A stretch of DNA of 61,307 nucleotides from Deltaproteobacteria bacterium (GTDB lineage: Bacteria > Bdellovibrionota > Bacteriovoracia > Bacteriovoracales > Bacteriovoracaceae). Both the position numbers and the translations under genes were made by a program. This document shows, one piece after another, positions 36,958 through 61,307 of the stretch; the first letter of the stretch is position 1, and each line of letters begins with the position of its first letter. Location: NCBI GenBank assembly GCA_006226755.1, contig SBGE01000081.1, positions 1-61,307 on the forward strand, written 5' to 3'. The notes beneath the pieces are model-generated. The model had not been told where the DNA came from, searched no databases, and saw only the letters and a list, made by a program, of their open reading frames with translations.

Positions 36958-36963
36958 GTCTAA

Positions 36964-38457
36964 GTGGAATTCATCTTACTCTTTTCTGTCGCTGTCATTG
37001 CCACTTGTGGGCTCGTTTACGAGTTGGTAGCAGGAGCATTGGCAAGCTATCTTTTAGGTGATTCCATCACACAATTTTCTCTGATTATAGGGATCTATCT
37101 TTTTTCTATGGGAATTGGTTCGTGGTTTTCAAAATACATCACAAAAAATGTGATGATGAAATTTATTCAAATTGAGTTTATTGTAGGCTTGGTCGGCGGA
37201 CTCTCTGCTACAGTTCTTTTCTTTTCATTCGAGTTTATCAGCCATTTCAGACTTTTACTTTTCTCATTCGTTACCATGACCGGAATATTGGTAGGGCTCG
37301 AAATACCGCTCTTGATGAGAATTTTAAAGGATCGGTATGAGTTTAGTGATTTGGTTTCTAAAGTTTTTACAGTCGATTATATTGGTGCCTTGTTTGCTTC
37401 CATTCTTTTTCCTTTAGTTTTGGCGCCCTATTTAGGACTAGTGAGAACTTCACTGCTCTTTGGAATTTTTAATGTTGCTGTTGGCTTGTGGACATTGAGT
37501 CTGATTAAAGAAGAGATGCCATGGCGTAATGCTCTGAGAGGGACGGGGATTGGAGCTGCTCTTGTCCTTGTTATCACTTTTGCATTCTCAAACAAGCTGA
37601 CTCAATTTGCGGAGACTTTGAACTATAAAGATCAGATTGTTTTTACTGATAAATCACCTTATCAAAAAATTGTTTTGACTCAAGGCGATCATGATCTGAG
37701 ACTCTTTCTGAATGGAAATTTGCAATTCAGTAGTGTCGATGAATATCGTTATCATGAAGCACTCGTTCATCCCGCTATGGCCTTACAAAATAATCCTAAA
37801 AAGATTTTAGTCCTGGGTGGAGGAGATGGATTGGCCGTTCGAGAGATACTTAAGTTTCCAAGTGTTGAGAGCGTGACACTCGTTGACCTAGATCCTTTGA
37901 TGACAAAAATTTTTTCTACCAATGATAGATTGGTTAAGCTCAATGAGCGGGCATTAAAGAATGAGAAGGTAAAAGTAGTCAATGCAGATGCTTTTGTATG
38001 GCTTCGAGAAACTAAGGACGTTTTTGATGTTGTCATCATCGATTTTCCCGATCCAAGCAACTACTCTCTTGGGAAACTTTATACTACTCGCTTTTTTACA
38101 CTTCTTGGCAAGGTAATGAAAGATGAGACGAAAGCAGTTATTCAATCGACATCTCCGCTCTATGCCAGAAAATCTTTCTGGTGTGTCGGTAACACTTTGA
38201 AACATGTCGGATTCAAAATAAATCCATTTCACGTCTATGTCCCTTCATTTGGAGAGTGGGGGTATTTTCTTTTTTCTAAGAGTCATATGGATCTCGATTT
38301 TAAACCACTTCAAAATGCCAAGTTTCTCACTAAAGCTGTGTGGGACTCGATGTTTGTTTTCCCTCCTGATATGGAATACACCGAAACTGAAGTGAATCGT
38401 CTTAATAACCAAATTCTTGTGCGATATTTTGAAGATGAGTGGTCACGATATAACTGA
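36964..38457 (+). CDS. membrane-fused spermidine/spermine-synthase-like aminopropyltransferase
   Basis: The N-terminal ~200 aa are polytopic. The C-terminal domain carries ILVLGGGDGLAVREIL, VDLDP and VIIDFPDPS motifs. Confidence 0.85.
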   Translation: MEFILLFSVAVIATCGLVYELVAGALASYLLGDSITQFSLIIGIYLFSMGIGSWFSKYITKNVMMKFIQIEFIVGLVGGLSATVLFFSFEFISHFRLLLFSFVTMTGILVGLEIPLLMRILKDRYEFSDLVSKVFTVDYIGALFASILFPLVLAPYLGLVRTSLLFGIFNVAVGLWTLSLIKEEMPWRNALRGTGIGAALVLVITFAFSNKLTQFAETLNYKDQIVFTDKSPYQKIVLTQGDHDLRLFLNGNLQFSSVDEYRYHEALVHPAMALQNNPKKILVLGGGDGLAVREILKFPSVESVTLVDLDPLMTKIFSTNDRLVKLNERALKNEKVKVVNADAFVWLRETKDVFDVVIIDFPDPSNYSLGKLYTTRFFTLLGKVMKDETKAVIQSTSPLYARKSFWCVGNTLKHVGFKINPFHVYVPSFGEWGYFLFSKSHMDLDFKPLQNAKFLTKAVWDSMFVFPPDMEYTETEVNRLNNQILVRYFEDEWSRYN

Positions 38458-40075: not shown

Positions 40076-41142
40076 GAAGTTCATCCAATTTATTTATTTC
40101 AAATCCCGTGGTTGAATCCCTGTTTATTTTATTTCCACCTTTTCTTTCTGTGATTTTAGCATTTGTGTTCTATAAGTTTACAAACTATAGGGAAATGACA
40201 CCTCTTTTTTGGCTCTTCATTGTTTTATTGGTGGATGTCGCTCATGTCTGGACGACAATCTTTCGTACCTATTTGAACAAATCTTTTTTGAAGCAAAGAA
40301 GTGATCTTCTTCTTTACGTTCCTGTTGGCTGTTTTATCATTGGCGTTCTTTTATACACTGCTGGCAAAATGGTTTTTTGGCGAGTAATGGCCTATGTCGC
40401 CCTTTTTCATTTTATTCGACAGCAGTATGGTGTTTTCATGTTGTATGCTAGAAAGACTGAAATGAGTGTCTGGCAACAACGAATTGGCAAACTTTGTATT
40501 TATTTATCAACCATAGCTCCTGTGGTTCATTGGCATTTCAGTTTACCTAAGAAATTTAGCTGGTTTATGGAGGGTGACTTTTTTGTTTTGCCCAATAATC
40601 AAATTATTCCATTGATCGTCTGGGGGATCACAGCCATTTCTTTTTTGTTGTATCTCTACATGGAGTTCAAGTCTTGCGTTTTTAATTGGGCGAAGCATTT
40701 GGTTCTTTTTGGGACTCTTCTTTCTTGGGGTGTCGGAATTGTCGTCTTGAATAATGATATCAGTTTTACACTGACCAATGTCCTGACTCATGGGATTCCA
40801 TATTTTGCCCTTGTTTGGATGTCGAGTTGTCAGGGTAATGATCAAATAAAGGATAAGACATTTGGAATCATGCAGGTTTTTACCAAGTCTCGTTTGGTAG
40901 GTGTGTTCTTTATGATAGCTCTAGTTGTTTTTTTGGGTTTTTTCGAAGAGCTCTTTTGGGATGTTTTTGTCTGGCATGAGCATCAGTCAGTTTTTTCTTG
41001 GATTTATAATGGTGTCGTTCATTCTGACCATGCCATGCTGGCCCTTCTCGTTCCTCTTTTTAGTGTCCCTCAGGTCACCCATTATGTCCTCGATGGTTTT
41101 ATATGGAAGGGGAAGCAGAGCTTTGATGGGCTTCGATTTTAA
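40072..41142 (+). CDS. polytopic membrane protein, unknown function
   Basis: ATGA overlap with the oxidase gene. About 9 hydrophobic segments and several conserved-looking His/Trp residues. Confidence 0.65.
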   Translation: MRSSSNLFISNPVVESLFILFPPFLSVILAFVFYKFTNYREMTPLFWLFIVLLVDVAHVWTTIFRTYLNKSFLKQRSDLLLYVPVGCFIIGVLLYTAGKMVFWRVMAYVALFHFIRQQYGVFMLYARKTEMSVWQQRIGKLCIYLSTIAPVVHWHFSLPKKFSWFMEGDFFVLPNNQIIPLIVWGITAISFLLYLYMEFKSCVFNWAKHLVLFGTLLSWGVGIVVLNNDISFTLTNVLTHGIPYFALVWMSSCQGNDQIKDKTFGIMQVFTKSRLVGVFFMIALVVFLGFFEELFWDVFVWHEHQSVFSWIYNGVVHSDHAMLALLVPLFSVPQVTHYVLDGFIWKGKQSFDGLRF

Positions 41143-48741: not shown

Positions 48742-51159
48742 TCATGGAGTGAGGGTCAACGTTCCTTTCTTCTGAGCTTTGACAATTTTTAAATCCAATA
48801 ATTGCTCTCTGTATTTTCCATCGAGAAACATTCTTACTTGATCGTCGTAATGTGGACTGAAAGGCCTACCTGAATTTCCAGTAGGAAGTATTCCAAGTGA
48901 AACTGAAGCATCTTTAAAATCGATTAACCTTCTTGTCGATGGTCCAAGTGTGACATGAAAATCGTCTTTGTATCTTTTTGACGACATATTATCGACTTGA
49001 AAATATCCACCACCAGATTCAAAGGGACCAATATTGAAAATAGAATCGAGTGGTTTTTTCTTTCCGAATGGATGAGCAAATTCAATGGTATGTAGACGTC
49101 CCCAATTCCAGCTACTGACATTGCTTCCATACTGATCACTCAAAGATTTAAGTGTTTTATCAAAAGCAGTGGCAATAATTTGTTCTCTGGTTTCTTTCTC
49201 ACTGGTTTTGTTATTGTCCCACCAAGGAGAATTGGCATTCTTGATGAATGTTTTAAAAAAGTGCCAGCCGTCCGCCACGCTATTCAATGCCTTGTAACGA
49301 TCTTCACCGAGTTCATCCAACATTGCTTCTTTCATGATTTGTTTGGTCCAAGTGTAATATAGCGAAGGGGCCACATCTGAGATTCCACTTTTACCATCCC
49401 AGGTTTTGAGAATCTCTACAGCTTTTTGTTTTTGTGATGAACCACCAGATTTGAGACTGCCAAGAAGAATGGAAAGGTGCTCATCGGCCGTCACAACGAA
49501 TTGATCATTTTGAACGGCCTTCAAATCTTCAAGGTCCCATTTTTCTTTGGTAGCGAGGAGATCAGTGATTCTCTCGAACCTTTCACTTGGTTGCCAGTAA
49601 CCGGAGAGTGGATGTTTACTTTTAAATTCTGGGTAATAATTTGTTGTGACAATGACTCCCGACTTTGGATTATAGAGATGTGGGTTCTCATCAATTGTCA
49701 GATAGCGAAGGTACTCATGTTTTCCAGACCAACCTTCAAGGATTGTTTCCCCTGTAACACCAGCAGGACGTAGGGGAATCTTAGACAGTACGTGCCAGGC
49801 GATATTTCCTCTTTTATCCACCCAGGAAACATTGAGTCCCGGTGTCGCTGCCAGTTTGATCGCTTCTTTCATATCTTTAAGATCTTGAGAATGAGCTAGC
49901 TTATAGAATGCTGTGGCCACGTCATTTTCAGGATGATGATAAGACCACTTAATTGCAAGGTGTTTATCTTTTTTGCCGTATTCAGTTCCATCAATTAAAG
50001 GACCATGAGGAGTTGTCACCACTTCGATGACAACATCTTCTTTTCCTTTTACTTTTACAATTTCTTTTTCAATTTTAAGAGGAACCCATTTGCCTCGATA
50101 CATCACCTGTTTTTTATCCCAATCTATTTTCTCTTGATAAATATCGAGATCGTCCATCTCGGCCATGGTGACGGCCCAACCGCGGTTCATATCGTGACCC
50201 ATTGCTGGGAATGGTACCAGTGGTAGATAGTGGCCATAGATTTCATAACCTGGATATTTGATATGAGCTTCATACCAAACGGAAGGATTCGAAAAAGCTA
50301 CGTGGGGATCGTTGGCCAATAATGCATGACCTGATTTGGAACGAGTTGGTCCGAGTACCCAGGAGTTAGATCCGTGAAAAAGTCCGAAGTTTTGTTCGAA
50401 CTCAGTGAGAAATTCAGTTAGATCCTTGAACCAGGCCTCTTGGGTAGGTCTGGCAATTGCCTTATTGAGAGGTTTTGAATTGGAAGCATAACTTTCTGTG
50501 ATTAAGTTTCTATCTTTTGTGTGTTTAACCAAGACCTGATCCACCATCTCTTTTGGAAAATCTGCATACAGTTCTGAAAAGAGTGAGTCGGCAATAATCC
50601 CTTCTGCAAAGCTTAGTGCCATGTAACCAGAAATTGCCATCCCTTCTGCAAGTTCAAATTTCTTGGGTGTAAAGCCAAGTAGGACAAACTCAGGAGGAAG
50701 AGGTTGGGTTTTGACAAAATGATCAACACCTTCATAGAAGGCCTTCATCAAATTGATCATATGAGGATCCATATTCTGAAGGTTCTTCGCTAGGAATTCA
50801 TCCATGGTTTTTCGAAGTTTCAATTTTCTAAGAAGAATGTCCCATTTTGTAGCGGCCTCTCCAAGAACTTCTGAAAGTGAACCATTTGCAATTCTTCTAA
50901 GAAGTTCCATGTGAAAAAGCCTATCTCCAGCTGTGACAAAACCAAAGGCCCGCATGGCATCCATTTCACTTTTAGCTTCAATGTGAGGAATTCCATATTT
51001 ATCTCTGTGTACTTCAACCGGAAGTTCCAGTCCTGGAAGATTCAAGCTCCCATGAGTTTTAGGAAGTCTGGCCTTAAAGGCTATTTGAGTAGGAAGAATG
51101 AGAGCGGCGAGAACAGCAAAAAAGATACCCATGATAATTCCAGTTTTTTTTATTTTCAT
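48742..51159 (-). CDS. penicillin-acylase-family Ntn hydrolase (possible acyl-homoserine-lactone acylase)
   Basis: Signal peptide, the beta-subunit nucleophile region HGSNSWVLGP, an 805-aa length and the LLANDPH motif. Confidence 0.9.
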   Translation of the reverse strand: MKIKKTGIIMGIFFAVLAALILPTQIAFKARLPKTHGSLNLPGLELPVEVHRDKYGIPHIEAKSEMDAMRAFGFVTAGDRLFHMELLRRIANGSLSEVLGEAATKWDILLRKLKLRKTMDEFLAKNLQNMDPHMINLMKAFYEGVDHFVKTQPLPPEFVLLGFTPKKFELAEGMAISGYMALSFAEGIIADSLFSELYADFPKEMVDQVLVKHTKDRNLITESYASNSKPLNKAIARPTQEAWFKDLTEFLTEFEQNFGLFHGSNSWVLGPTRSKSGHALLANDPHVAFSNPSVWYEAHIKYPGYEIYGHYLPLVPFPAMGHDMNRGWAVTMAEMDDLDIYQEKIDWDKKQVMYRGKWVPLKIEKEIVKVKGKEDVVIEVVTTPHGPLIDGTEYGKKDKHLAIKWSYHHPENDVATAFYKLAHSQDLKDMKEAIKLAATPGLNVSWVDKRGNIAWHVLSKIPLRPAGVTGETILEGWSGKHEYLRYLTIDENPHLYNPKSGVIVTTNYYPEFKSKHPLSGYWQPSERFERITDLLATKEKWDLEDLKAVQNDQFVVTADEHLSILLGSLKSGGSSQKQKAVEILKTWDGKSGISDVAPSLYYTWTKQIMKEAMLDELGEDRYKALNSVADGWHFFKTFIKNANSPWWDNNKTSEKETREQIIATAFDKTLKSLSDQYGSNVSSWNWGRLHTIEFAHPFGKKKPLDSIFNIGPFESGGGYFQVDNMSSKRYKDDFHVTLGPSTRRLIDFKDASVSLGILPTGNSGRPFSPHYDDQVRMFLDGKYREQLLDLKIVKAQKKGTLTLTP

Positions 51160-51309: not shown

Positions 51310-52821
51310 ATGAAGTATCCGATCATATTACTCTGCTTGGTGTTGATGCAGTCCGCGCTTGGAATGAGTACTGAGGAGGCGAGACACCTCCAAAGGCGAA
51401 CTGGGTTTCATGTAGATTCAAAGCTGACTAAGAAATTTGAATCAATGACCAGAGAACAGGCAGTCGATTTTCTTATGAGTCGAACCAGAACAACTCCCTT
51501 AACTCCCCAACCTAAATGGATTGAGCATTTTGAGTACATCTATGATGCCGCCATTAGAATGAAAAAAGGGCAGGGACAAAAAGCAGATATAAAAAAAATC
51601 AAACAGCGGACAGAGCAAATCATCGCTTTGTTTCCAAATATTCCAAAACCTCTGGTTTCAAAACTTAGAACAGCGATGGATGATGAAAAAAAGATTCGTC
51701 GAGTTTTGAATATGATTTCCAATCGGCTTCTTTCAAAGTCTCTTCAGGCCTGGTGGTTGGAAGAAATGCATAAGACAGAAAGTCCCCTGACTGAAAGAAT
51801 GACTCTCTTTTGGCACAATCATTTCGCCACAAGTTTCAAAAAAGTGAAAGTTCTTCCTTGGATGTATAGTCAGAACCTTCTTTTAAGAAGACATGCCTTT
51901 GGAAGTTTTAAAGATCTTCTTAGAGATGTCTCTAAAGATGCCGCCATGCTTTTTTATCTGGATAGCAATAAAAACGTCAAAGGTGCACCAAATGAGAATT
52001 TTGCCAGAGAAGTGATGGAACTCTTCACACTAGGGGAAGGAAACTATTCAGAAAAAGATATCAAGGAAGCGGCAAGAGCGTTTACAGGATGGAATGTTGA
52101 TCGACTGACTGGAGATTACGTTTTTAGACACAAGCAACATGATGAAGGCAACAAAACAATTCTAGGACAAACCGGAAAGTTCTATGGAGATGATGTTTTG
52201 AACATCATTCTCCAAAATAAAAAGACAGCTGAATTCATCACGAAGAAAATCTGGAAAGAATTCGTCTCTCCCGAACTTAATGAAGCAAAAATCAACGCTA
52301 TTGCCACTACATTTTTTGAAAGTGGTTATGAAATTAAAACACTTATGAGAGAAGTTTTTATTAGTGATGAGTTTTATAAATCAAGTGGGCAACTGATCAA
52401 ATCTCCTGTCGATCTTCTTGTTGGCACGATCAAAGAATTTGATATCGAGCCAGTTAATTATCTGCCTTATGCGATGATGGCTGGGAGACTTGGGATGGAG
52501 CTCTTTGATCCACCGAATGTCAAAGGATGGCCTGGTGGTGAGAAGTGGATCAACACTTCAACACTTCTCATTCGAAAAGATCTCATGACTAGACTCTTTA
52601 GGGTCGGGGAGAAAAAAGAGAAGGCCAATATGATGAATCCTATGCAGGCCATGGCCTCTATGTCGACATTGGATATGAAAGCAGTGATGAAAGATCGGAC
52701 ACGCTCTCAAATGTTGGAAGAAGTTCTGGTCTTGAAACCCGTTTCCGAAATTGAAGATAAGAAAAAAGATATCGCGTGGGCAAGACAAATCGTTCTCGAT
52801 CCTGTCTATCAATTGAGGTGA
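51310..52821 (+). CDS. DUF1800 family protein
   Basis: AAGGAG RBS, a signal peptide and the LTERMTLFWHNHFATS motif. Confidence 0.85.
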   Translation: MKYPIILLCLVLMQSALGMSTEEARHLQRRTGFHVDSKLTKKFESMTREQAVDFLMSRTRTTPLTPQPKWIEHFEYIYDAAIRMKKGQGQKADIKKIKQRTEQIIALFPNIPKPLVSKLRTAMDDEKKIRRVLNMISNRLLSKSLQAWWLEEMHKTESPLTERMTLFWHNHFATSFKKVKVLPWMYSQNLLLRRHAFGSFKDLLRDVSKDAAMLFYLDSNKNVKGAPNENFAREVMELFTLGEGNYSEKDIKEAARAFTGWNVDRLTGDYVFRHKQHDEGNKTILGQTGKFYGDDVLNIILQNKKTAEFITKKIWKEFVSPELNEAKINAIATTFFESGYEIKTLMREVFISDEFYKSSGQLIKSPVDLLVGTIKEFDIEPVNYLPYAMMAGRLGMELFDPPNVKGWPGGEKWINTSTLLIRKDLMTRLFRVGEKKEKANMMNPMQAMASMSTLDMKAVMKDRTRSQMLEEVLVLKPVSEIEDKKKDIAWARQIVLDPVYQLR

Positions 52822-52835
52822 GTGTGGAGACAAAT

Positions 52836-53999
52836 ATGAAAAGAAGAGATTTCCTTAAAACAACACTCTCATTGTCAGCCCTTTGTATGCTTCCTTTTCC
52901 GGTGATGGCCTTGGCGAAAGAAAAGAAAATCCTAATCTTGATTGAACTCAAAGGGGGGAATGATGGACTCAATACTTTGATTCCTTTTTCTGATCCTCTC
53001 TATACCAAACTGCGGCCCTCGATTGGAATCAAAGAATCAGAAGTTTTGAAACTAAACTCTAAACTTGGTTTTCATCCTTCCCTGAAATTTCTTCATCAAT
53101 CCTTTAAAAGTAATCAATTGGCGATTCTTCAAGGAGTTGGCTACGCTAATCCGAACCTGTCGCATTTCAGGTCTATCGATATCTGGGAAACGGCAACGGA
53201 GAGTGAGGAATACTCGGATCAAGGTTGGCTTCAACAACTTTCATCGAAAATTGGTGATGGCAAAGAACTAGTGAAGGGAATCATAGTCGGAGACAATGCC
53301 TTTGGACCGTTTCGAGGAGCGACTTCAGAAGTTCTGGTAATGGATAACCCAAAAAGATTTTTAAGAAAAAATGCCAAACTCAATCTTTATGAAAATAAGC
53401 AAGTCCTCCCAAGTTTGAAACATATCCTCGACGTGGAAAATAGTCTTTCTAAAACCATAGAAGAACTTCGAACTAAGACTGAGAAAGTTGAGCTTCCTGA
53501 AATGAATGATCTTCCACAAGATCAAGTTGCTGGGATGATCAAAGCTTTGCTTTCTGTTTTAGCAGCGGGACATCACGTTCCTGTTTTTAAAATTTCAATT
53601 GGAGGATTTGATACTCATACAGAACAACTCAATCAACATGCCAGACTCTTGAGCGTTCTTGATCAAACCTTTCAATCCTTAGAGAAAGGGCTGAAGCAGA
53701 TTGGTGTTTGGAAAGAATCCACTCTATTGACCTATAGTGAGTTCGGTCGAAGACCTGCTGAGAATGGCTCACGAGGGACAGATCATGGTACGGCCAATGT
53801 GCATTTTGCGATGGGAGGAACTGTTAGAGGAGGTCTCTATGGTAAGCAGCCGTCTCTTTCAAATTTAGATGGGGAAGGGAATATGAAGTTCACCACTGAT
53901 TTTAAATCTATTTATTCTGAAGTTTGTCAGAAGATTTTCAAAATCAGTGATGCTGAAATTGTCAAAAAGAACAAAAAGCTTCCGGGTTTTCTCACTTAG
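52836..53999 (+). CDS. DUF1501 family protein (sulfatase-like fold) with a Tat signal
   Basis: I moved the start to MKRRDFLKTTLSLSAL. GGFDTH and GRRPAENGSRGTDHG motifs are present. Confidence 0.85.
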   Translation: MKRRDFLKTTLSLSALCMLPFPVMALAKEKKILILIELKGGNDGLNTLIPFSDPLYTKLRPSIGIKESEVLKLNSKLGFHPSLKFLHQSFKSNQLAILQGVGYANPNLSHFRSIDIWETATESEEYSDQGWLQQLSSKIGDGKELVKGIIVGDNAFGPFRGATSEVLVMDNPKRFLRKNAKLNLYENKQVLPSLKHILDVENSLSKTIEELRTKTEKVELPEMNDLPQDQVAGMIKALLSVLAAGHHVPVFKISIGGFDTHTEQLNQHARLLSVLDQTFQSLEKGLKQIGVWKESTLLTYSEFGRRPAENGSRGTDHGTANVHFAMGGTVRGGLYGKQPSLSNLDGEGNMKFTTDFKSIYSEVCQKIFKISDAEIVKKNKKLPGFLT

Positions 54000-54001: not shown

Positions 54002-54385
54002 TTATCTTCTTACGTAGACAAAGTCGCAGTAATCATAAGTTGAGGAGTCTCCACGACATAAGCTCATTGTATGAGATGTTGATTGTCGCATGTAAGTTGG
54101 ATCGTCCCAGACTTCGTAGCTGACACTTTCAAGTCCCCATGGATTTTTACAAGTACCAATTAAATGTGGATATGCCTCAATGTACTCTCTTGTGAAATTA
54201 TCTGCCAAGTAAGCATTATTGCAATCATAGTCTTGATACTTTTCTCCATTGTATGAAACTTGTGCAATAAACATCGCAGTCATTCCGTTTGTTCGGATAC
54301 ATTGATATTGTACAGCTCCATAGCAATATTTTGCAGATGCTTGAGAGATATTAAATAAGACAAAGAGAGTAATTAAAATTTTCAT
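54002..54385 (-). CDS. small secreted 6-Cys protein, unknown function
   Basis: Signal peptide MKILITLFVLFNISQASA and six Cys in the mature part. Confidence 0.55.
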   Translation of the reverse strand: MKILITLFVLFNISQASAKYCYGAVQYQCIRTNGMTAMFIAQVSYNGEKYQDYDCNNAYLADNFTREYIEAYPHLIGTCKNPWGLESVSYEVWDDPTYMRQSTSHTMSLCRGDSSTYDYCDFVYVRR

Positions 54386-54393
54386 TTTTTAGC

Positions 54394-55215
54394 CTACCAT
54401 TTTTTACAAAGAGTTTCGAATTCAGAAACTAGTCGTTCATACTCAGCTTGTTTTGCTCCTCTAAAAAACAAAGGCAAATGAGAGTAGGTACCGCCTCCTA
54501 GAAGAGAAATTTTGACTCCTTCACTTTCAACATAATTTATCTGACCAGAGTGTCTATTGGAGTTGATACGTTTTGTGAAATCTATGTCAGCAATGATGAC
54601 ACGTTTACCGTCAAAACCACCTGGTGCATATTGCAGTGAACGAATTTGCATTTTGCACGTATCTGGATAGGTATAGACGCTTCTTTCTTCCTCAGGATGA
54701 TAGTAGTCGTGATCTAGAAGGTTGTATAAAATAGATATGGCGATTGGTTTTCTTTTAGCATACAAAGCTGCATAGGCATAATCGACAGTAACTCTAGTAA
54801 CTTTTGAATCTCTGATCTTGAAATAGACTTGAACTTTTTCACCAGAGACTCTAACTTCACCTGTCTCTTCATTCTCTGCATAGTCTCCGTATTTTCTTTT
54901 CAGTTGAAACTTTCGAAGATCAAAGTCTTCAGTAAAACTTGGAAAATTAAGCGCCCTGCCTTGAAAATCAAGAAAGCTTAGTTTTTTAGCAACAAATGTA
55001 TCAGCCGTACATTCAGCATAAGAGATCCCACCCTGAAAGGTTAGTCTGATTGTATCGCCATTAACTTGATCATCTTCAAGTTGCCAAAGATCGATAAGTT
55101 TATCACAACTAATTTGACCACTGAGTCCTGCATATTTTTGATCAATAAGACTGGCAGATGAAGCAGATGTTGAATAAACAAAAAGACTGAGTAATAAGAC
55201 AAAGGTTTGTTTCAT
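54394..55215 (-). CDS. secreted protein, unknown function
   Basis: Signal peptide MKQTFVLLLSLFVYSTSASSAS. Confidence 0.6.
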   Translation of the reverse strand: MKQTFVLLLSLFVYSTSASSASLIDQKYAGLSGQISCDKLIDLWQLEDDQVNGDTIRLTFQGGISYAECTADTFVAKKLSFLDFQGRALNFPSFTEDFDLRKFQLKRKYGDYAENEETGEVRVSGEKVQVYFKIRDSKVTRVTVDYAYAALYAKRKPIAISILYNLLDHDYYHPEEERSVYTYPDTCKMQIRSLQYAPGGFDGKRVIIADIDFTKRINSNRHSGQINYVESEGVKISLLGGGTYSHLPLFFRGAKQAEYERLVSEFETLCKKW

Positions 55216-55320
55216 TATATCTCCAAGCTGAATAAAAAATATTTGCGGAAAATACTAATGAAGACACTTTATGTCAATTTATGGAGAGACTTTTACCTTC
55301 GAGATTTTAGATACTTAACC

Positions 55321-56079
55321 TTAAAAAAGCGGAAGTCCCTTGATTGGCTTCCAAGTTAAAAGAGAGATTACTGAAAGGACATTGGAGTCGGTGCGGGTTT
55401 TGAAAACACCTGGACCGGCCAAGATCTCCCAACCTTCTTTGAATCTATACTGATTGAAATAGTACTGCATGTTCGATTCTTGCTTGGTGTTTCGCATTTC
55501 ATTGAACTGACCAAGATATCCCATCATCCATTTTTCACTTAACTTATAACCAGCGATAAAAGTCTTTTGAAAAAGAGTGTCGCTTCCTGGACTTGAAATC
55601 AATGAAGAGAGTTCGTCAGCATATTGTCTGCCTGGGTGATGCTCATCGAGTTCTGAACGATTCCATTTAAAATCGGCCATAAATAGGATTGGACCTCCAC
55701 CTAGAGCAAGCCTTGCTCCGTAATAATCTCTTTTGACTTTGGTATCGCAAACAATCGCCACACAATCAAAAGTTGGAAGTTTATCGTAATCCCTTTCGGT
55801 ATAAGACTTTCCTGCATAGAGATTAAGAATAGAAATGGGGTTGATGTCGATCTGTGCTTGGGCCATGTGAACGACGAATGCTGTTTGAGCGGTAACAGAT
55901 GGTCTTACATAACCATAAAGGACTTTATCATCTTTTTTCCACACAGGGAGAGAGTATCCCCCTGTGGCATTGATAAAAAAAGCGGTCGGATAACTTCGTG
56001 CGAGTTGTGTAGCTTTTAGATCCCACTCAGCTCTGAGTGAGAGGGGTAGAAGCGCTATCAACAGAATCAGTACTTTCAT
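55321..56079 (-). CDS. outer-membrane beta-barrel-like protein
   Basis: GAAGGGA RBS, the signal peptide MKVLILLIALLPLSLRA, and a C-terminal ...GLPLF. Confidence 0.65.
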   Translation of the reverse strand: MKVLILLIALLPLSLRAEWDLKATQLARSYPTAFFINATGGYSLPVWKKDDKVLYGYVRPSVTAQTAFVVHMAQAQIDINPISILNLYAGKSYTERDYDKLPTFDCVAIVCDTKVKRDYYGARLALGGGPILFMADFKWNRSELDEHHPGRQYADELSSLISSPGSDTLFQKTFIAGYKLSEKWMMGYLGQFNEMRNTKQESNMQYYFNQYRFKEGWEILAGPGVFKTRTDSNVLSVISLLTWKPIKGLPLF

Positions 56080-56794
56080 AAGTCATCCCTTCATAATTGA
56101 ACTGGCTGTAAAACTTGAAGGCAAAGGCCAATGAGACCGCACTCAAGATATGCCAAGTGGCGTGACCTTGGAAGAAGTGGTTGTGAGGATTACACATGGT
56201 TCTCGTCACATCCAAAACTGAGAAAGTCGCGGCCGATACGATAAAAAAGATACTGCTATAAAAGTACTTGTACTGTGTTCCCTTTTCAAGCTTTCTAAGT
56301 CTAAGTTCCGAGAAAATAAGAAAGAGAGCTTGTACAAGAACAATACTTTGGATCGGAATGTATTTCAGATAGAAAAGGATCACGAGTCCACCAAACAGGG
56401 CATTAAAAGCAAAATAGAACGGCCAAATCCCTTTTTGAGTAATTTTCCCCATGCGTCGAAGGTTCAGAGCAATAAAAAGTCCAATCATCAGGAACATTCC
56501 AAGAAAATCGAACCACTGTGTAAAGAAGTTATAGGAAGCGTGATAGATGAAACTGAAAAGTCCCATTAAAAAGAAGGCCGGAACAAAGCTTTTGAGAGTC
56601 TTGTCTTCCATGTTTCTTGTTTGTCTCCAAACCCATATGGTTAGTGCTAGATATACAAGATTCGACCATGTATTGGCCGGTTCAGTGATCACAGAACACA
56701 TACTGGCTTCACACCACTTCACATTAGGTGGCGCGATTTTAGAAATTTCATACCACGGGCAGTGGGGAGCTAACATGGGAACATTGTAATTCAT
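56027..56794 (-). CDS. alkaline-ceramidase (ACER/YPC1)-like 7-TM hydrolase
   Basis: WCEASMCSVITEPANTWSNLVYL parallels the ACER N-terminal motif, and GHATWHILSAVS parallels the C-terminal His motif. Seven hydrophobic segments. Confidence 0.8.
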   Translation of the reverse strand: MNYNVPMLAPHCPWYEISKIAPPNVKWCEASMCSVITEPANTWSNLVYLALTIWVWRQTRNMEDKTLKSFVPAFFLMGLFSFIYHASYNFFTQWFDFLGMFLMIGLFIALNLRRMGKITQKGIWPFYFAFNALFGGLVILFYLKYIPIQSIVLVQALFLIFSELRLRKLEKGTQYKYFYSSIFFIVSAATFSVLDVTRTMCNPHNHFFQGHATWHILSAVSLAFAFKFYSQFNYEGMTYESTDSVDSASTPLTQS

Positions 56795-57486
56795 AGTGAC
56801 CTCGAGTTTCTTTCTACAGCTTTGGTTATTGTTTTAAGTGCTTGAGTGGTTCCTGCACTCATATTTTCAAATACATTTTCTTCAACAAAATCTCTGACGA
56901 GAAACCAATGTGAAGTTTTGGATTCATAGCGATATTCTACTTTCGTTTTCTTGTCTGAAAGTTTGATTAAACGGTAAGTGCCTTTTATAAAATCAAAAGC
57001 TGAGCTCACGCGAGTGGGGTCTTTCAAAACCTTGTTGATTATTTTTGGATTGACCATTTCATGAGAGATGATCATTTCATTGTCAGAAGTCTTTTTCTTG
57101 ATGACATCATAGTGAGCAAAAGAGCCGCGGTTATAAACGTTTCTCCATACCAAATAGGAAGGAGTGAGGTCATCCGTTTTGAGAATATCTTTATTGAATT
57201 CTTGAATTTTGACTGCTTCAACTAGATTCTTGTTGAAGTAGAGACACTTGTCTTCCCACTTCATCATCTTGCGTTTAGAGCGATACTCGTTGTTGCATTT
57301 CTCATCGAAATTTTCGATTCCCTTGGCCACTGATTCAAGATCGGCTTCATAAGTCATTTCTACTTCTGCAGTAAAAACTTTGGTTTCTCCCTCCCAATAA
57401 GAAGAGAGGCGGACATCTCCAATGGTCCTCTTTGTTTGGGCAAAACAATTGAAGGAGATCATTGTAAAAAGAACAAAGATTTTCAT
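56791..57486 (-). CDS. secreted protein, unknown function (possibly a lipid-binding fold)
   Basis: Signal peptide MKIFVLFTMISFNCFAQ and 4-nt overlaps with both neighbours. No motif I can name. Confidence 0.6.
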   Translation of the reverse strand: MKIFVLFTMISFNCFAQTKRTIGDVRLSSYWEGETKVFTAEVEMTYEADLESVAKGIENFDEKCNNEYRSKRKMMKWEDKCLYFNKNLVEAVKIQEFNKDILKTDDLTPSYLVWRNVYNRGSFAHYDVIKKKTSDNEMIISHEMVNPKIINKVLKDPTRVSSAFDFIKGTYRLIKLSDKKTKVEYRYESKTSHWFLVRDFVEENVFENMSAGTTQALKTITKAVERNSRSL

Positions 57487-58961
57487 TGTTGATATCCGTC
57501 CTCTCCTTTAGGAGTGAAAAGGTTGTCGAGAGCGTCTTTGACAAGAGTTTCACGATCCTTATCATCAGTGATAGCGGCCATCATCCCGTACATCGGGGCC
57601 ATCTTCTCGGGACGAGAGTCGCCAGCACCAATATTTTTACCTTCTTTTTGAACAAGTTTACTGACCATGTTTTTTGGAAGTGTTTTAAGCATTCCCTTGG
57701 CCATAGATGTTTTTATTCCTGAAATTTTACTTCCAAGACCTCTGGCCTCGGCCACAGCTCTACGAAGATCTTCAAAAAACTCATCAATTGATCCAGCGTG
57801 TGCAGCAGTAATGGTGAGGTGAAGACCATTTGGAAATTGTTGCATGTCCATGTGCCAACCACGTTTGGCCATGGAATCACCAACTTGAAAGACATCAATT
57901 TCATCAGAAACCAGACACAGAACTGACATGTCTGGATCACCAGCTATTTGAATGCCTTGGATGTCTTCAATGCGCTTAATGAATTCAGCAGTCGTATCAC
58001 GAATTCCTCCGATCAGTTTCATATATCCTTCTTCACCGAGATAATTCATGATCGCCCAAGCCGCAGCGATAGCTCCCCCCGGCCTCGTTCCAAGAACTGC
58101 AGGGGAACCGTACATTCCACCTGGCCAATCAGTTGTGACATAAAACTGATGACGTCTGAGCTCTTTATTTTTGTAAAGAACAACGGAGGCGCCCTTGGCG
58201 GCATAGCCATATTTATGGAGATCAACTGAAATTGAGGTCACACCGTCAACGGCGAAATCAAAACCTGGAAGTTTACTACCTAGTTTTCGATAAAAAGGAA
58301 GTACGATTCCGCCAACACAAGCATCAACGTGCATTAAAATTCCATTTTGTTTGGCCAGACTTGCAATCTCTTCAATCGGATCAATGACTCCTTGAGGATA
58401 AGATGGAGCAGAACCAACTAGAAGGATCGTATTTTTGTTCACGGCTTCTCTCATCGCTTGAACGTCCGCGCGATAATCACCCCGTGTTGGGATAGTAATA
58501 ATCTTCACTCCGAAATAGTGACCAGCTTTATTAAAAGCAGGGTGAGCTGTAATTGGCATGATAAGTTCAGGCTCGGTTATCTCTGGCTTGTTAACTTTTG
58601 CCCATTCTCTTGCCGTTTTAATGGCCATCAAAATGGATTCAGTTCCACCACTGGTCATTGTACCGGCGGCAATATCTCCAGATGGCTGGTTTTCACCATT
58701 CAGTAGTTTTGATGTCATTGCAACAACTTCATTTTCAAACTTTTTTAGGCTTGGAAAAGCTGAAGGATTGAGTCCGTTCTCTGAAAAGAACATACAGTAG
58801 GCATCTTTGATGACATTAGAGATTTCTTCGCCTCCATGAAAGACCAGACTGAAGGCCTTTCCTTCTTTCCATTTGATGTCGTTCTTTCTGACTTCTTCCA
58901 TCTTGGAAAAAAGGGTATCCCTGGACATTCCTCTTGTCGGGAGTTCTTTGGTCTTGTTCAT
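57483..58961 (-). CDS. PLP-dependent sphingosine-1-phosphate-lyase-like enzyme (group II decarboxylase fold)
   Basis: TSISVDLHKYGYAAKGASVVLYKNKELRRHQFYV closely parallels the eukaryotic S1P-lyase PLP-Lys region (SISADTHKYGFAPKG...). Confidence 0.85.
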   Translation of the reverse strand: MNKTKELPTRGMSRDTLFSKMEEVRKNDIKWKEGKAFSLVFHGGEEISNVIKDAYCMFFSENGLNPSAFPSLKKFENEVVAMTSKLLNGENQPSGDIAAGTMTSGGTESILMAIKTAREWAKVNKPEITEPELIMPITAHPAFNKAGHYFGVKIITIPTRGDYRADVQAMREAVNKNTILLVGSAPSYPQGVIDPIEEIASLAKQNGILMHVDACVGGIVLPFYRKLGSKLPGFDFAVDGVTSISVDLHKYGYAAKGASVVLYKNKELRRHQFYVTTDWPGGMYGSPAVLGTRPGGAIAAAWAIMNYLGEEGYMKLIGGIRDTTAEFIKRIEDIQGIQIAGDPDMSVLCLVSDEIDVFQVGDSMAKRGWHMDMQQFPNGLHLTITAAHAGSIDEFFEDLRRAVAEARGLGSKISGIKTSMAKGMLKTLPKNMVSKLVQKEGKNIGAGDSRPEKMAPMYGMMAAITDDKDRETLVKDALDNLFTPKGEDGYQQ

Positions 58962-61240
58962 TTGGCTCCTCCAATTCTCATAGCACTGACTGGATTTTGT
59001 TCACTCATATCTGGCAAATCATCTTCGTTGATATTTCCATAATCTGGAAATTCATCACCTGATGGTTTCGGGGCAAACATTTTAAGTACGGCCGCTACAG
59101 TATTTCTATCGCAATATATATCTTTCTTCTTTCCAAATACGTGAAAGAGAATCAATTGTACGGCTGACGGATGCTGTTTCTTTTTGATGACATAAAGAAA
59201 AACAGATTTAAGAAGTTTGCTGGTCGGTTTGAGGTTGGCTTCTTCTGCCAGAATATTTTTTAAAACTTCAAATGTTTCATCAAGCTCTTTCCGATCGATA
59301 ATGTGATCATTGTTTTTATCATAGCGAAGGAATAGACCTTCTCCGTTGGACATACTCGTCAACATTCTTGAAAGATCTGTTTTTGTAACAGGAACTTGTG
59401 GATCTGGATTGATTCGCGCCATCTTCTCAGCATCTTCAAGAAACTTTTGAGAGACAGACCAATCAGCATTTTTAAAATAATGATAGAAATTTGGAAAATA
59501 AGCATCCTTCTTCATATCAAAGAAGAGAGTTGGAAAAAAGTTTTCCCTATAACAAGTCACTTCAAAATTAAAAAGATCATCGGTTTGGCAGTATTTTCTA
59601 AGTTCCTCAAATATCTCTCGACCAATGGTATTGGCACCAATGATGGTTGGTAGGTAGGAAACGATTTCATCCATTTGGAGAAGGTTATCTCCATTGGAGA
59701 GATGTTGAAAAAGATCTGAACCGAGCATTAATTCTCTGACAAGACGATCGAGATCATCAGGCCACATATCAAATTCTTCAAGTGCACCTTTATAACCAAT
59801 GATCACTTTTCTGATGTTTTCCTTATCGATTGACCAGCGGCCATCAGCAGTTCGATGTGTTCGATAAGTTTGGAACAATTTGTTGCCTCCATAGCGGAGA
59901 ATCGCTTGGAGAATGTATCCCCATCTTGTTCTTCGATACTGATGACTGAACAGAATCAGGTTGTTATCCTCGGGAAAAGTTCGATATTTTTTGGTGACAA
60001 ACATGAAGTCTTCCCAAAGTTCGATCAATCTTGGAGTTGGGATAATGTCTAGTTCCGGAGAATCTGGAAAGGTGAGAGATTCGATGACTTTGTCACGTTC
60101 AAGTTCATCTTCATGATAATCCCAGGCAAAGGTAAAAAAGAAAAGAGATTCAAGAGCTCCAGCTCCCATTTGAAGCATCACCTGAGTATCTTCAAGAGTA
60201 TAGTAATTTGAGTCACCGCCAATGATGTCTTTTTTGAAAAGTTTGAGGCTGTCTCCAACATTTTTCCAATTGTAATCTGGAAGAAATCTTTGAAGAAGGT
60301 CCAGAAGTTCTTCATTATCGACAATGACTTCAGTCTTGTGTCCTTCCATCAACATATTCTCCAGATCGTGAATATTTGTCAGAAGATACTTATAAAATTT
60401 CCAATCTAATTCAAAGTGATGTCGTTTGACTTCAGTGAAATCAAACCAGGACTTGACGATGGTTGGGGCCTTGGCAATCAATTGCTCGATCTCAACTGCT
60501 CCGATAACGTTTCTGTCTCCCCCTAGAAAGAGTCTTTTGAGAAATAACATGCTTTTAATGAGATCGATATTGAATCGATCATCGGGAATTCCTGCTGTGA
60601 CTTTGATTCTTTGTAGAAAGCTTATGACATCAAGGTATTGACCATTGTCCGGGCGTTCTTTGATGATGTTGCTTATCTTTATAGAGAGTTCATTCAAGTT
60701 TGACAGTAGTACATCTCGATAGTTCCAATACCCATTTTCTTTAATTTGAAGAAGAACCTTTTTCAATTGATGACCATGTTGATTAACGGCCCGGATTAGA
60801 TCCATAAATGGTTTGATGTTATTGACATGAAGGGAATCTGGTTGGTCACGAAGAACGAGCGCGTTGACTTCAAAAATTAGCCCCAAAAAATCTGTAATGA
60901 GTTGTGGCTCTATATTCATAAAGCGCAGGATAAAAGTTTGGAGCTCTTCCTGTTTGATAATTTCCTGATTTTGTCGTCGAACAAATTTGGCAAACTTATC
61001 TAGGTTCCCTTCAAGGCAATTGATCTCTTTTGAAACATCGCGATCAAGAATTTGTTTGAGCGCATCAGTGTCTACTGGACAGACGCTCTCCATGTTTTCG
61101 ATATCGATGTATTCGCTATCAGGACTTTGGTCATCAATAAGGCCACATCCTTGGCACAGAATTCCCAACATCAAAACGAAAAGGAGACAGAGTCCCTTCA
61201 ATAATTGAGATTTGAGTTGAGTGAGTTGAATCATCTTCAT
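58958..61240 (-). CDS. large (760 aa) exported protein with an EF-hand-like Ca-binding loop, unknown function
   Basis: The N-terminus LLKGLCLLFVLMLGILCQGC is signal/lipobox-like. The loop DKNNDHIIDRKE is encoded at 59285-59320. The frame stays open upstream to the window edge, but the signal peptide favours the 61240 start. Confidence 0.7.
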   Translation of the reverse strand: MKMIQLTQLKSQLLKGLCLLFVLMLGILCQGCGLIDDQSPDSEYIDIENMESVCPVDTDALKQILDRDVSKEINCLEGNLDKFAKFVRRQNQEIIKQEELQTFILRFMNIEPQLITDFLGLIFEVNALVLRDQPDSLHVNNIKPFMDLIRAVNQHGHQLKKVLLQIKENGYWNYRDVLLSNLNELSIKISNIIKERPDNGQYLDVISFLQRIKVTAGIPDDRFNIDLIKSMLFLKRLFLGGDRNVIGAVEIEQLIAKAPTIVKSWFDFTEVKRHHFELDWKFYKYLLTNIHDLENMLMEGHKTEVIVDNEELLDLLQRFLPDYNWKNVGDSLKLFKKDIIGGDSNYYTLEDTQVMLQMGAGALESLFFFTFAWDYHEDELERDKVIESLTFPDSPELDIIPTPRLIELWEDFMFVTKKYRTFPEDNNLILFSHQYRRTRWGYILQAILRYGGNKLFQTYRTHRTADGRWSIDKENIRKVIIGYKGALEEFDMWPDDLDRLVRELMLGSDLFQHLSNGDNLLQMDEIVSYLPTIIGANTIGREIFEELRKYCQTDDLFNFEVTCYRENFFPTLFFDMKKDAYFPNFYHYFKNADWSVSQKFLEDAEKMARINPDPQVPVTKTDLSRMLTSMSNGEGLFLRYDKNNDHIIDRKELDETFEVLKNILAEEANLKPTSKLLKSVFLYVIKKKQHPSAVQLILFHVFGKKKDIYCDRNTVAAVLKMFAPKPSGDEFPDYGNINEDDLPDMSEQNPVSAMRIGGAK

Positions 61241-61307
61241 GATGAGTTTTTCTCCGTTCGAGTCTTTCGGGATTGCTGTACGCGCAAAGTCTCTGACGTA
61301 CAGTATT

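Follow-up and report, generated by a model that had tools for sequence, protein, structure and literature searches.

Described systems closest to the locus

In the eukaryotic pathway, ceramide is deacylated by alkaline ceramidases (ACER1-3/Ypc1), sphingosine kinase acts next, and the sphingosine-1-phosphate (S1P) lyase SGPL1/Dpl1 cleaves the long-chain base. Legionella and Burkholderia turn S1P lyases against host cells. Bacterial members of the lyase family with solved structures include StSPL of Symbiobacterium (PDB 3mad), Bpss2021 of Burkholderia pseudomallei (5k1r) and LpSpl of Legionella (4w8i). Pseudomonas aeruginosa is described as answering exogenous sphingolipid through a regulator-controlled system, SphR/CerN/sphBCD, one component of which is a ceramidase (PMC5150637, PMC11398299), and growth of Pseudomonas putida on fatty esters requires the DUF1302/DUF1329 genes PP_0765/PP_0766 (bioRxiv 10.1101/2020.07.04.188060).

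The five genes analyzed here (O1-O5), carried by a predatory-type bacterium, appear to form a bacterial route, not described before and without a kinase, for the uptake and breakdown of ceramide-like lipids. They share with the eukaryotic pathway both enzyme families, including the ACER catalytic Ser/His/Asp/His/His with its Cys pair and the lyase PLP ligands with the PLP-Lys motif, and the logic of deacylation followed by long-chain base cleavage. Unlike that pathway, they include no kinase, are physically coupled in an operon, and come with dedicated exported proteins of probable lipid-handling function, a putative TetR repressor and an anion transporter. A ceramidase within a bacterial, regulator-controlled sphingolipid response is shared with P. 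aeruginosa, but CerN is a secreted neutral ceramidase and not a 7-TM ACER-type protein; that system is not known to have an SPL-family lyase and handles the long-chain base by a different route.

Gene order and probable control of the five-gene core

The window, i.e., the whole 61,307-nt stretch of DNA analyzed, carries seven minus-strand ORFs in series: O1 (58958-61240, 760 aa), O2 (57483-58961, 492 aa), O3 (56791-57486, 231 aa), O4 (56027-56794, 255 aa), O5 (55321-56079, 252 aa), ORF6 (54394-55215, 273 aa) and ORF7 (54002-54385, 127 aa). Each of the three 4-nt overlaps (58958-58961, 57483-57486 and 56791-56794) is an ATGA stop/start junction, O4 and O5 overlap by 53 nt (56027-56079), and gaps of 105 nt (55216-55320) and 8 nt (54386-54393) follow O5 and ORF6, respectively. 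This layout agrees with that of the first-pass annotation, which had taken all seven genes as one unit; the conserved unit is instead a five-gene operon, O1-O5 (55321-61240, minus strand), with O1 as its first gene and O5 as its last. ORF6 and ORF7 lie outside it, because 167 related loci contain no homologue of either, their GC3 (0.25-0.30) differs from that of the core genes (0.36-0.46), and the 105-nt gap that precedes them contains a sigma-70-like promoter match.

O1-O5 recur with unchanged order and with junctions that overlap in at least 18 other Bacteriovoracia-type loci (ceramidase identity 44-92%), and recurrence in so many loci, down to 44% identity, argues that the arrangement is more than chance. 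A divergent pair of TetR and DUF819 genes always accompanies the block in these loci. The 67-nt 5' leader of the operon (61241-61307, minus strand) aligns with the sequence just upstream of the O1 start in one related locus (L008), where its counterpart is preceded by ...TTGTAAAATATTATAAT. As judged from this alignment, the window probably ends inside the -10 box of the O1-O5 operon, which would place the promoter, the TetR operator and the divergent TetR-DUF819 genes beyond it. The gene set given by the first-pass annotation lacked the regulator, the transporter and the palindromic operator, as they lie just past the window end. A TGAA-N6-TTCA palindrome is found upstream, between TetR and O1, in 14 of 14 orthologous loci (background 0.06 per 300 nt), and the operon is probably repressed by the TetR regulator. 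SphR of P. aeruginosa, by comparison, is an AraC-type regulator, not a TetR-type one.

The ceramidase-type and lyase-type enzymes

O4 encodes a 7-TM, Zn-dependent amidase of the alkaline-ceramidase (ACER/CREST) type. The Pfam Ceramidase model (PF05875) matched at 61.1 bits (cut-off 32.5), and ACER3 (6g7o, E = 2.3e-8) was the sole significant PDB match of the family profile, in line with the ACER-like motifs noted before. HlyIII gave no match at E<=0.1, and O4 groups with the alkaline ceramidases. Residues W27-C28-E29, E38-P-A-N-T-W-S-N45, S81, H85, D96, C201, H211 and H215 are invariant in the family and align to the WCE, SxxxH, D, C196 and HxxxH features of ACER3 (PMC6303388, PMC9436119), the Zn-site residues being conserved. 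Lys and Arg average 11.5 in loops 1, 3 and 5 versus 3.6 elsewhere, a pattern seen in 33 of 33 members. By the positive-inside rule, which gives the same answer for all 33 sequences, the catalytic face of O4, with the conserved Cys on that side, is predicted to be periplasmic at the inner membrane, unlike the cytoplasmic face of ACER3 (PMC6303388). Bacterial ACER-type proteins have no known enzyme activity, and the CREST papers assign the bacterial groups no function.

O2 encodes a PLP enzyme that by sequence belongs to the S1P-lyase family and has a variant head-group pocket; read by eye, its N-terminal sequence has no signal peptide and no TM helix, consistent with a cytoplasmic protein that lacks the membrane anchor of the eukaryotic lyase. 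In phmmer searches of the PDB, StSPL was the best match (397 bits), and human SGPL1 (367), yeast Dpl1 (342) and the Burkholderia enzyme (314) all scored above the decarboxylases MfnA (147) and GAD (~70). With the nearest decarboxylase 250 bits below proven S1P lyases, a Glu/Tyr decarboxylase assignment was rejected. The S1P-lyase-like call of the first-pass annotation therefore stands, and alignment with human SGPL1 bore out the close resemblance of the PLP-Lys regions.

The PLP site is the same as that of StSPL, with all ligands conserved (K250, H249, D213, H140, G106/T107 and T292), and K256 (StSPL K317) and N62 (N126) are retained as well. However, the alignments indicate that two substrate-phosphate ligands kept in StSPL are replaced, Tyr105 by Phe41 and His129 by Asn65 (StSPL active-site residues from PMC10243590), so "S1P lyase" is insecure as a substrate assignment. 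The His is replaced by Asn, Ser or Gly throughout a large environmental SPL-like clade. Bacteriovoracia-type lyases have Phe in place of the Tyr, a residue that the majority of the wider clade keeps. Membership in this clade leaves the substrate of O2 unfixed, since a nearby ceramidase is missing for most of them and the genes around them are diverse (ADH, TPP enzyme, SDR, TauE). Unlike the Legionella and Burkholderia enzymes, O2 sits in what appears to be an uptake/catabolic operon. Host targeting of their kind is unlikely, because O2 lacks an export signal and the system centers on components for uptake.

Exported partners

O1 encodes an exported, mostly alpha-helical lipoprotein, with the lipobox Cys32 kept in all orthologues, four more conserved Cys (54, 75, 551 and 563), and one conserved EF-hand loop (residues 641-652). 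The EF-hand that had been proposed in this 760-aa protein is partly upheld, as 13 of 13 orthologues have the canonical loop (D-x-[DN]-x-[DNS]-...-E) but the Pfam EF-hand_6 match reaches 18.8 bits, under the cut-off of 25. AF2 gave a weak model (pLDDT 61.7, pTM 0.45), to which Foldseek found no match at E<0.7. In at least 18 loci, an O1 homologue occupies this place in the gene order.

O3 has a signal peptide, invariant Cys64 and Cys81, and a modeled START-like (helix-grip) lipid-binding fold (AF2 pLDDT 75.6, pTM 0.76). The top Foldseek matches were lipid-loaded START domains, i.e., ACOT11 with myristate (E = 6e-7), StAR, a Xanthomonas START protein, STARD10, and CERT in its ceramide-bound structure (2e3s), at probability 1.0 with TM-scores of 0.4-0.6 and sequence identities of 8-16%. 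Sequence methods gave no Pfam match, START included, and no PDB match, and residues 62-87, a loop of low model confidence, hold the conserved Cys pair. Unlike StAR, STARD10 and CERT, O3 is exported to the periplasm, and the model suggests that it is a probable periplasmic lipid carrier.

O5 belongs to a large uncharacterized family; exhaustive phmmer recovered 438 representative clusters, and nearly all among the matches listed were of ~250 aa. Besides a signal peptide, O5 has GLPLF at its C-terminus and an invariant Cys106/Cys111, and its mature part comprises ~12-13 amphipathic strands with no hydrophobic helix. The beta-type hydrophobic moment exceeded the alpha-type in 66% of windows, versus 33-42% for O1, O3 and O4. 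The profile found no PDB or Pfam relative. The support for the first-pass label "beta-barrel" consists of the signal peptide, the C-terminus and the strong dyad periodicity, and O5 is probably a small outer-membrane beta-barrel.

Recurrence of the ceramidase-lyase linkage

Bacteriovoracia form the main clade of the five-gene system, and ceramidase and lyase genes are also linked in three other architectures, the four lineages having GC contents of 39-53%. We consider these independent recurrences. The gammaproteobacterial loci (TetR-DUF819-SPL <> CER-DUF1302-DUF1329) have these six genes alone in common, with differing flanks; the other two are L090 (TauE-CER, TetR, O1-like, SPL, O5-like) and L133 (TauE <> CER-SPL). 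The window locus, in which the first-pass annotation saw no sphingosine kinase, contains no lipid kinase, nor is there one in any related ceramidase-lyase architecture. A small-anion-type transporter (DUF819 or TauE/SafE) always adjoins the system. Of the recurring pairs, that of the lyase-like gene and DUF819 or TauE is the tightest, and its flank often lacks a ceramidase; ~60 ceramidase-domain genes of other bacteria have no lyase nearby.

In Gammaproteobacteria, the DUF1302/DUF1329 pair takes the place of O1, O3 and O5, to which it has no sequence relation, and the analogy is positional and functional only. Since P. putida needs these genes for fatty-ester growth, the analogy supports a lipid-uptake role for O1, O3 and O5.

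Proposed route and alternatives

We consider it rather probable that O1-O5 form a TetR-controlled, envelope-spanning route that captures and dismantles a ceramide-like lipid, i.e., an N-acylated long-chain amino-alcohol. The lipid would cross or leave the outer membrane via the O5 barrel, possibly assisted by O1 as a Ca2+-binding lipoprotein, and be ferried through the periplasm by O3. On the periplasmic side of the inner membrane, O4 would then strip off the N-acyl chain, and the freed long-chain base would reach the cytoplasm, where O2 would cut its C2-C3 bond to yield a fatty aldehyde and a small polar amine. The base would either gain the anionic C1 group needed by the lyase or already bear it, and the adjacent transporter (DUF819 here; TauE/SafE in other lineages) may move a charged intermediate or product. 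The lipoprotein, the probable outer-membrane barrel and the exported carrier with its START-like fold agree with the uptake and degradation role put forward in the first-pass annotation, and by analogy so does the independent gammaproteobacterial version. Against the route count the two missing phosphate ligands of the lyase together with the lack of a linked kinase, the ceramidase-domain genes that have no lyase nearby, and the DUF819/TauE relatives, which carry small anions, a long-chain base not being an obvious fit.

A variant that we regard as unlikely is that the amidase deacylates a ceramide analogue with a preexisting anionic C1 group, the lyase then cleaving the base directly. The analogue could be ceramide-1-phosphate, from which S1P would form directly, or an N-acyl-capnine sulfonolipid from Bacteroidota prey, from which capnine would form, and DUF819/TauE would move the charged base or the small anionic product (phosphoethanolamine or taurine, formed along with an aldehyde). 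The name TauE, derived from sulfonate/sulfite transport (PMC12671195), points this way, but TSUP/TauE is very broad with mostly uncharacterized members, NCBIfam cut-offs do not identify the TPP enzyme near related lyases as Xsc, and we found neither a linked sulfonate-specific enzyme nor capnine cleavage in the literature. The lack of a kinase from all four architectures, the ever-present adjacent transporter and the clade-wide loss of the pocket His, joined in Bacteriovoracia-type lyases by Tyr to Phe, are consistent with this variant, although the pocket changes are read from alignments.

Bacteriovorax stolpii reportedly makes sphingophosphonolipids, and the exported proteins could instead shuttle endogenous lipid between membranes for turnover or remodeling, with no foreign import. 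The O4 catalytic face, predicted to lie at the cell's own inner membrane on the periplasmic leaflet, and the predominance of Bacteriovoracia agree with this, and a START-like carrier and an outer-membrane protein could serve either direction. We nevertheless think it improbable, as inducible loci for catabolism or detoxification are usually built in this way, with TetR-type repression and a degradative lyase, Gammaproteobacteria pair the same enzymes with genes tied to external fatty-ester use, and no SPT-type aminotransferase for sphingolipid synthesis was found in the 47 window ORFs scanned or among the Pfam-annotated genes of related loci.

A non-sphingoid substrate is very unlikely. Here, modeled on precursor/product transporter-decarboxylase pairs, the ACER-like amidase, acting at the periplasmic face, would deacylate an N-acyl amino-acid lipid, DUF819/TauE would import the freed polar amino compound, and the PLP enzyme would decarboxylate or cleave it. 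The tight lyase-transporter pairing and the altered phosphate pocket could be read in this way, and DUF819 shares the CPA/AT clan with the Asp:Ala exchanger, GltS and CitS (PMC8396727). Against it stand the bit-score gap between S1P lyases and decarboxylases and the retention of K256 and N62 in O2. We know of no decarboxylase inside the SPL clade, and the repeated pairing of the lyase-like enzyme with an ACER-type enzyme mirrors the two eukaryotic enzymes of sphingolipid catabolism.

A conserved five-gene core and its downstream flank

The seven minus-strand ORFs described in the first-pass annotation were all found at its coordinates, and its account of the junctions was correct: three 4-nt overlaps (all three being ATGA stop/start junctions), one 53-nt overlap, and gaps of 105 nt and 8 nt. 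Its proposal that the seven form one unit held for five of them. Genomic context was fetched for ceramidase homologues, 185,579 species genomes were scanned with the ceramidase alignment, and gene content was profiled by a tblastn census of 87 loci. O1 to O5 (55321-61240) were present with their order kept in 17 loci labelled Bacteriovoracaceae, Halobacteriovorax, Bdellovibrionales and Oligoflexia, and Sulfitobacter for one, with ceramidase identities from 92% to 44%. An extra complete copy was detected in a metagenome locus (L088). O6 (54394-55215; 273 aa) and O7 (54002-54385; 127 aa with six Cys), which together span 54002-55215 on the minus strand and both have a signal peptide, matched no Pfam family and lacked a homologue in all 167 related loci.

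GC3 was lower in O6 and O7 (0.25-0.30) than in the core (0.36-0.46), and the 105-nt gap preceding them contains a promoter-like site. In the closely related locus L009, a penicillin-amidase-family gene starts 57 nt after O5, whereas the window has O6, O7 and a DUF1800/DUF1501 pair between the two. O6 and O7 thus look like a recent local insertion downstream of the operon. The DUF1800/DUF1501 pair (51310-53999, plus strand) runs convergently towards the end of the operon region, and a weakly similar pair is found close to an unlinked ceramidase-domain gene in a Myxococcales MAG.

The penicillin-amidase/Ntn-hydrolase family gene itself (805 aa; 48742-51159, minus strand, the same strand as the operon) lies downstream, with counterparts in L008 (the closest relative; 12203-14617) and L009 (11531-13918). 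This family includes N-acyl-homoserine-lactone acylases. The gene was missing from more distant cluster loci, and we dropped it as a system member and treated it as local synteny because its linkage is limited to the three closest relatives; it could be a lineage-specific additional N-acyl amidase or mere local synteny.

An ACER-type protein predicted to face the periplasm

O4 (56027-56794, minus strand; 255 aa) matched the Pfam Ceramidase model PF05875 with 61.1 bits (cut-off 32.5) and had no HlyIII match at E ≤ 0.1. With a 33-sequence family profile, the alkaline ceramidase ACER3 (PDB 6g7o) was the sole significant PDB match (E = 2.3e-8); the next matches were SID1-family proteins (E ≥ 0.07), and no adiponectin receptor was among the PDB matches listed. 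The ceramidase-like assignment made for this 7-TM protein is therefore retained, grouping with hemolysin-III/PAQR proteins not being seen.

The catalytic set of the CREST superfamily, as given in PMC9436119, comprises three His, one Asp and one Ser in the motifs SxxxH, D and HxxxH. S81, H85, D96, H211 and H215 were invariant in the 33 family members, as were W27-C28-E29, E38-PANTWSN45 and C201, and these invariant residues align with the WCE, SxxxH, Asp, Cys196 and HxxxH of ACER3 (motifs from PMC6303388 and PMC9436119). ACER3 has an N-terminal Ca2+ site, D19-W-C-E-x-N24 plus A-E-F, and a C21-C196 disulfide (PMC6303388). In the O4 family this Ca2+ site is retained only in part: W27, C28, E29, E38 and C201 are conserved, the D19 position is K, N or D, and the N24 position is variable.

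Seven segments of O4 align with the TM segments of ACER3, in which the N-terminus and active site are reported to be cytoplasmic (PMC6303388). The mean Lys+Arg count was 11.5 in loops 1, 3 and 5 versus 3.6 in the N-terminus and loops 2, 4 and 6, a bias seen in 33/33 sequences, and the conserved Cys of the family are in the N-terminus and loop 6. Given this charge distribution (positive-inside rule) and the Cys positions, the N-terminus and catalytic residues of O4 are predicted to be periplasmic, so the orientation of ACER3 would not be matched. Bacterial ACER relatives were "hypothetical groups" in a 2011 CREST study, in which gene-neighbourhood analysis gave no functional lead, and a 2026 CREST review does not mention bacteria. 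No enzyme assay of any bacterial ACER-type member was found in the searched literature.

A lyase-family enzyme with a variant head-group pocket

Among solved structures, O2 (57483-58961, minus strand; 492 aa) scored highest against the Symbiobacterium S1P lyase StSPL (397 bits), human SGPL1 (367), yeast Dpl1 (342) and the Burkholderia lyase (314), versus 147 bits for the group II decarboxylase MfnA and about 70 for glutamate decarboxylases; the NCBIfam MfnA model gave 267, under its cut-off of 299. These scores favour the S1P lyases, as the first-pass annotation had proposed, and grouping with glutamate/tyrosine decarboxylases was not seen.

We mapped the StSPL ligand list (PMC10243590) on alignments to O2. 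The StSPL PLP ligands, i.e., the Schiff-base Lys K311, H310, D274, H201, G168/T169 and S353' (PMC10243590), correspond to K250, H249, D213, H140, G106/T107 and T292 of O2, the last being a conservative swap for Ser, and they were invariant across an alignment of 13 ceramidase-linked lyases. The substrate phosphate/head-group ligands of StSPL are Y105, N126, H129 and K317 (PMC10243590). Two of these were kept in O2 (N62 for N126 and K256 for K317) and two were replaced (Phe41 for Tyr105 and Asn65 for His129), so the full phosphate-ligand set is not present. In StSPL the two replaced residues both touch the phosphate of the substrate; Tyr and His are retained at both positions in human SGPL1, yeast Dpl1, the 8cmx enzyme and StSPL. 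Asn65 was invariant in 13/13 aligned ceramidase-linked lyases and Phe41 nearly so, the gammaproteobacterial one having Tyr. "S1P lyase" is, for O2, a placement in a family and not a substrate assignment.

Inspection of the sequence by eye revealed no signal peptide or membrane anchor at the O2 N-terminus. A reading of O2 as a Legionella-like host effector was rejected because it has no export signal and its gene context is of an uptake/catabolic kind. In the Bacteriovoracia-type lyases, a conserved MAPMYGMM motif is preceded by a Lys-rich insertion some 40 residues long (SGIKTSMAKGMLKTLPKNMVSKLVQKEGKNIG...; O2 residues about 408-450) that neither StSPL nor the gammaproteobacterial lyase has. 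This insertion may serve as an amphipathic tether to the membrane, substituting for the anchor that eukaryotic lyases have at the N-terminus.

The lyase alignment was used to seed a metagenome scan, which recovered 80 relatives (L088-L167) with 40-58% identity. Of the 76 loci readable at the His129 position, 75 had Asn, Ser or Gly there, and Arg replaced Lys317 in the Gly members and some Ser members. Most genes of this clade had no ceramidase in the available flank; recurrent neighbours were Zn-ADH, a TPP enzyme, SDR, TauE/SafE and DUF819. His129 to Asn was thus ruled out as a signature of ceramidase linkage, the variant pocket being a property of a large environmental clade, mostly ceramidase-unlinked, and not specific to the operon. 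The substrate of the clade is probably not S1P. A large group of "S1P-lyase-like" enzymes therefore has a head-group pocket unlike those of the human, yeast, 8cmx and StSPL lyases compared, and automatic annotation of its members is probably too specific. The TPP neighbour was considered as Xsc (sulfoacetaldehyde acetyltransferase), which would have backed a link to sulfonates, and was discarded: it scored far below the Xsc cut-offs and was equally acetolactate-synthase-like.

Exported partners of the two enzymes

O1 (58958-61240, minus strand) encodes a 760-aa exported lipoprotein whose lipobox Cys is conserved in all orthologues, along with four more conserved Cys. A canonical EF-hand loop of 12 residues, DKNNDHIIDRKE, lies at residues 641-652, and its ligand positions (1, 3, 5 and 12) are conserved in 13/13 orthologues. 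The family-model score (Pfam EF-hand_6, 18.8 bits) was below the cut-off of 25, and no paired second EF-hand was identified in O1. The AlphaFold model of O1, from a 7-sequence alignment, was weak and gave no fold match, and its faint matches to EF-hand proteins were not significant and were not used.

The product of O3 (56791-57486, minus strand; 231 aa) has a signal peptide, and sequence-profile searches returned neither a Pfam nor a PDB match. Its AF2 model (pTM 0.76) predicts a helix-grip fold, in which an antiparallel sheet packs against a long helix at the C-terminus. This model had 152 PDB matches at E ≤ 0.001, START domains first and other helix-grip (Bet v 1-type) proteins below; the best were lipid-bound START domains, including CERT with ceramide.

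O5 (55321-56079, minus strand; 252 aa) starts with a signal peptide and ends in GLPLF; it shows strong dyad periodicity of the beta type, lacks a hydrophobic helix and is likely an outer-membrane barrel. The family comprises 438 representative clusters, for which sequence-profile searches gave neither Pfam nor PDB relatives. A distant O5-family gene (23-30% identity) is located about 1.7 kb upstream of a ceramidase-domain gene in Bacteriovoracaceae/Bdellovibrio loci without a lyase (L053, L070, L072-L074 and L087), and O5-type proteins and ACER-type amidases may thus be partners outside the lyase system as well.

A divergent regulator and transporter upstream in related loci

The window ends 67 nt upstream of O1, and the region beyond was inferred from the close relatives L008 and L009. 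These last 67 nt align to the L008 leader, directly after a TATAAT box there. TetR-family and DUF819 genes are divergent from and upstream of O1 in every Bacteriovoracia-type locus with sufficient upstream flank. A TGAA-N6-TTCA palindrome was present in the TetR/O1 divergent promoter region, beyond the window, in 14/14 loci (L008 4176-4189, and equivalent positions in the 13 others; background 0.06 per 300 nt), and a second, half-overlapping palindrome often trails the first, e.g., TTGAAAAGATTTTCAACTTAGTTGAA. The conserved TGAA-N6-TTCA palindrome is a plausible TetR operator. The gammaproteobacterial loci have in its place a perfect 16-bp palindrome, TTCTACATATGTAGAA, which is probably the TetR operator there. 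The inverted repeat CTGTACG...CGTACAG within the last 67 nt was rejected as an operator, as it is not conserved in L008 and the conserved palindrome is further upstream, outside the window.

DUF819 is a secondary transporter of the CPA/AT superfamily, modelled on CitS and related to GltS and the Asp:Ala exchanger (PMC8396727). The commonest neighbour of the lyase clade was DUF819 or a TauE/SafE (TSUP) protein replacing it. Both transporter families have links to small anions, which points to movement of some charged intermediate or product across the inner membrane.

Other ceramidase-lyase architectures

In three gammaproteobacterial loci, TetR-DUF819-lyase is divergent from ceramidase-DUF1302-DUF1329, and in gammaproteobacterial loci with differing flanks only these six genes were common. 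Growth of P. putida on fatty esters needs DUF1302/DUF1329 genes (bioRxiv 10.1101/2020.07.04.188060), and thus an unrelated envelope lipid-handling pair occupies the place of O1, O3 and O5. Two further arrangements were TauE-ceramidase, TetR, an O1-like gene, lyase and an O5-like gene (L090; GC 50%), and TauE divergent from ceramidase-lyase (L133; GC 53%). The ceramidases of all these architectures retained the catalytic residues, and no kinase was found in any of the four. About 60 further loci with a ceramidase-domain gene, from Myxococcota, Lysobacteraceae and other groups, had no lyase nearby, indicating that the linkage is a recurrent specialisation and not a property of the whole family.

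A proposed envelope-spanning route and its alternatives

We consider, with moderate confidence, that the operon is an inducible envelope-spanning route for the breakdown of ceramide-like lipids. The lipid would be taken up at the outer membrane via O5 and O1, ferried through the periplasm by O3, and N-deacylated by O4 at the periplasmic face of the inner membrane; O2 would then cleave the long-chain base in the cytoplasm, with TetR control and the anion transporter rounding off the system. The family assignments, fold, residues, predicted compartments and linkage were observed here; the direction of flow, the substrate and the supply of the C1 anion are inferred.

Readings that differ on these points were each given a low probability. 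The first-pass annotation saw no sphingosine kinase, and indeed neither a DAGK-type or other lipid kinase nor an SPT-type aminotransferase was found in the 47 window ORFs scanned (14 ORFs of at least 120 aa, several nested in larger ones, and all shorter ORFs were left out). A kinase-free route on a base already bearing its C1 anion, e.g., from ceramide-1-phosphate or a sulfonolipid, appears unlikely, and we give as little weight to remodelling of the cell's own sphingolipids. Quite unlikely is that the SPL-family O2 is not an S1P lyase and acts directly, without a kinase, on the deacylated base of another ceramide-like lipid, one already bearing an anionic C1 group. Capnine is the most interesting candidate for this base: it would come from sulfonolipids of Bacteroidota prey and yield a fatty aldehyde and taurine, and the sulfonate would be dealt with by DUF819 or TauE. 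ACER-type and SPL-type enzymes would both gain a new class of substrate, and predation, membrane lipids and the organosulfur cycle would be connected in a new way. A route for a non-sphingoid N-acyl amino-acid lipid is very unlikely.

Returning to the breakdown of ceramide-like lipids, both enzymes are from families that act in eukaryotic sphingolipid catabolism. Unlike that pathway, the system in the window has no kinase, the amidase orientation is predicted to be inverted and the lyase pocket is variant, and it adds dedicated envelope proteins and a regulatory/transport module. The protein families of the Pseudomonas CerN/Sph system are unrelated to those found here, and a search for literature combining S1P lyase with predatory bacteria found nothing. 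The locus gives bacterial ACER-type proteins a concrete, testable context, in which the amidase repeatedly occurs together with a lyase of the SPL family, a lipid carrier, proteins of the envelope, an anion transporter and a repressor that has a recognisable putative operator. If the route operates as proposed, bacteria would have built their catabolism of ceramide-like lipids from the two enzyme families that eukaryotes use, in a version that has no linked kinase and a periplasm-facing amidase, and predatory and marine bacteria could consume or detoxify sphingolipid-type lipids of prey and detritus.

Further gene clusters in the window

Elsewhere in the window, at 24269-26370 (plus strand), a gene for a LolA_like/DUF1329-like lipoprotein (263 aa) precedes one for a 436-aa protein without a Pfam match; the two may form another envelope pair for lipid handling, similar in kind to the pair that stands in for O1, O3 and O5 in the gammaproteobacterial loci. 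A same-strand run at 33621-41142 (plus strand) encodes an SPFH/Band-7 protein with SHOCT, two DUF4178 proteins, a small ORF (36535-36957), a spermine/spermidine-synthase-domain protein, a flavin amine oxidase and a 356-aa protein, and may be a polyamine-related membrane cluster.
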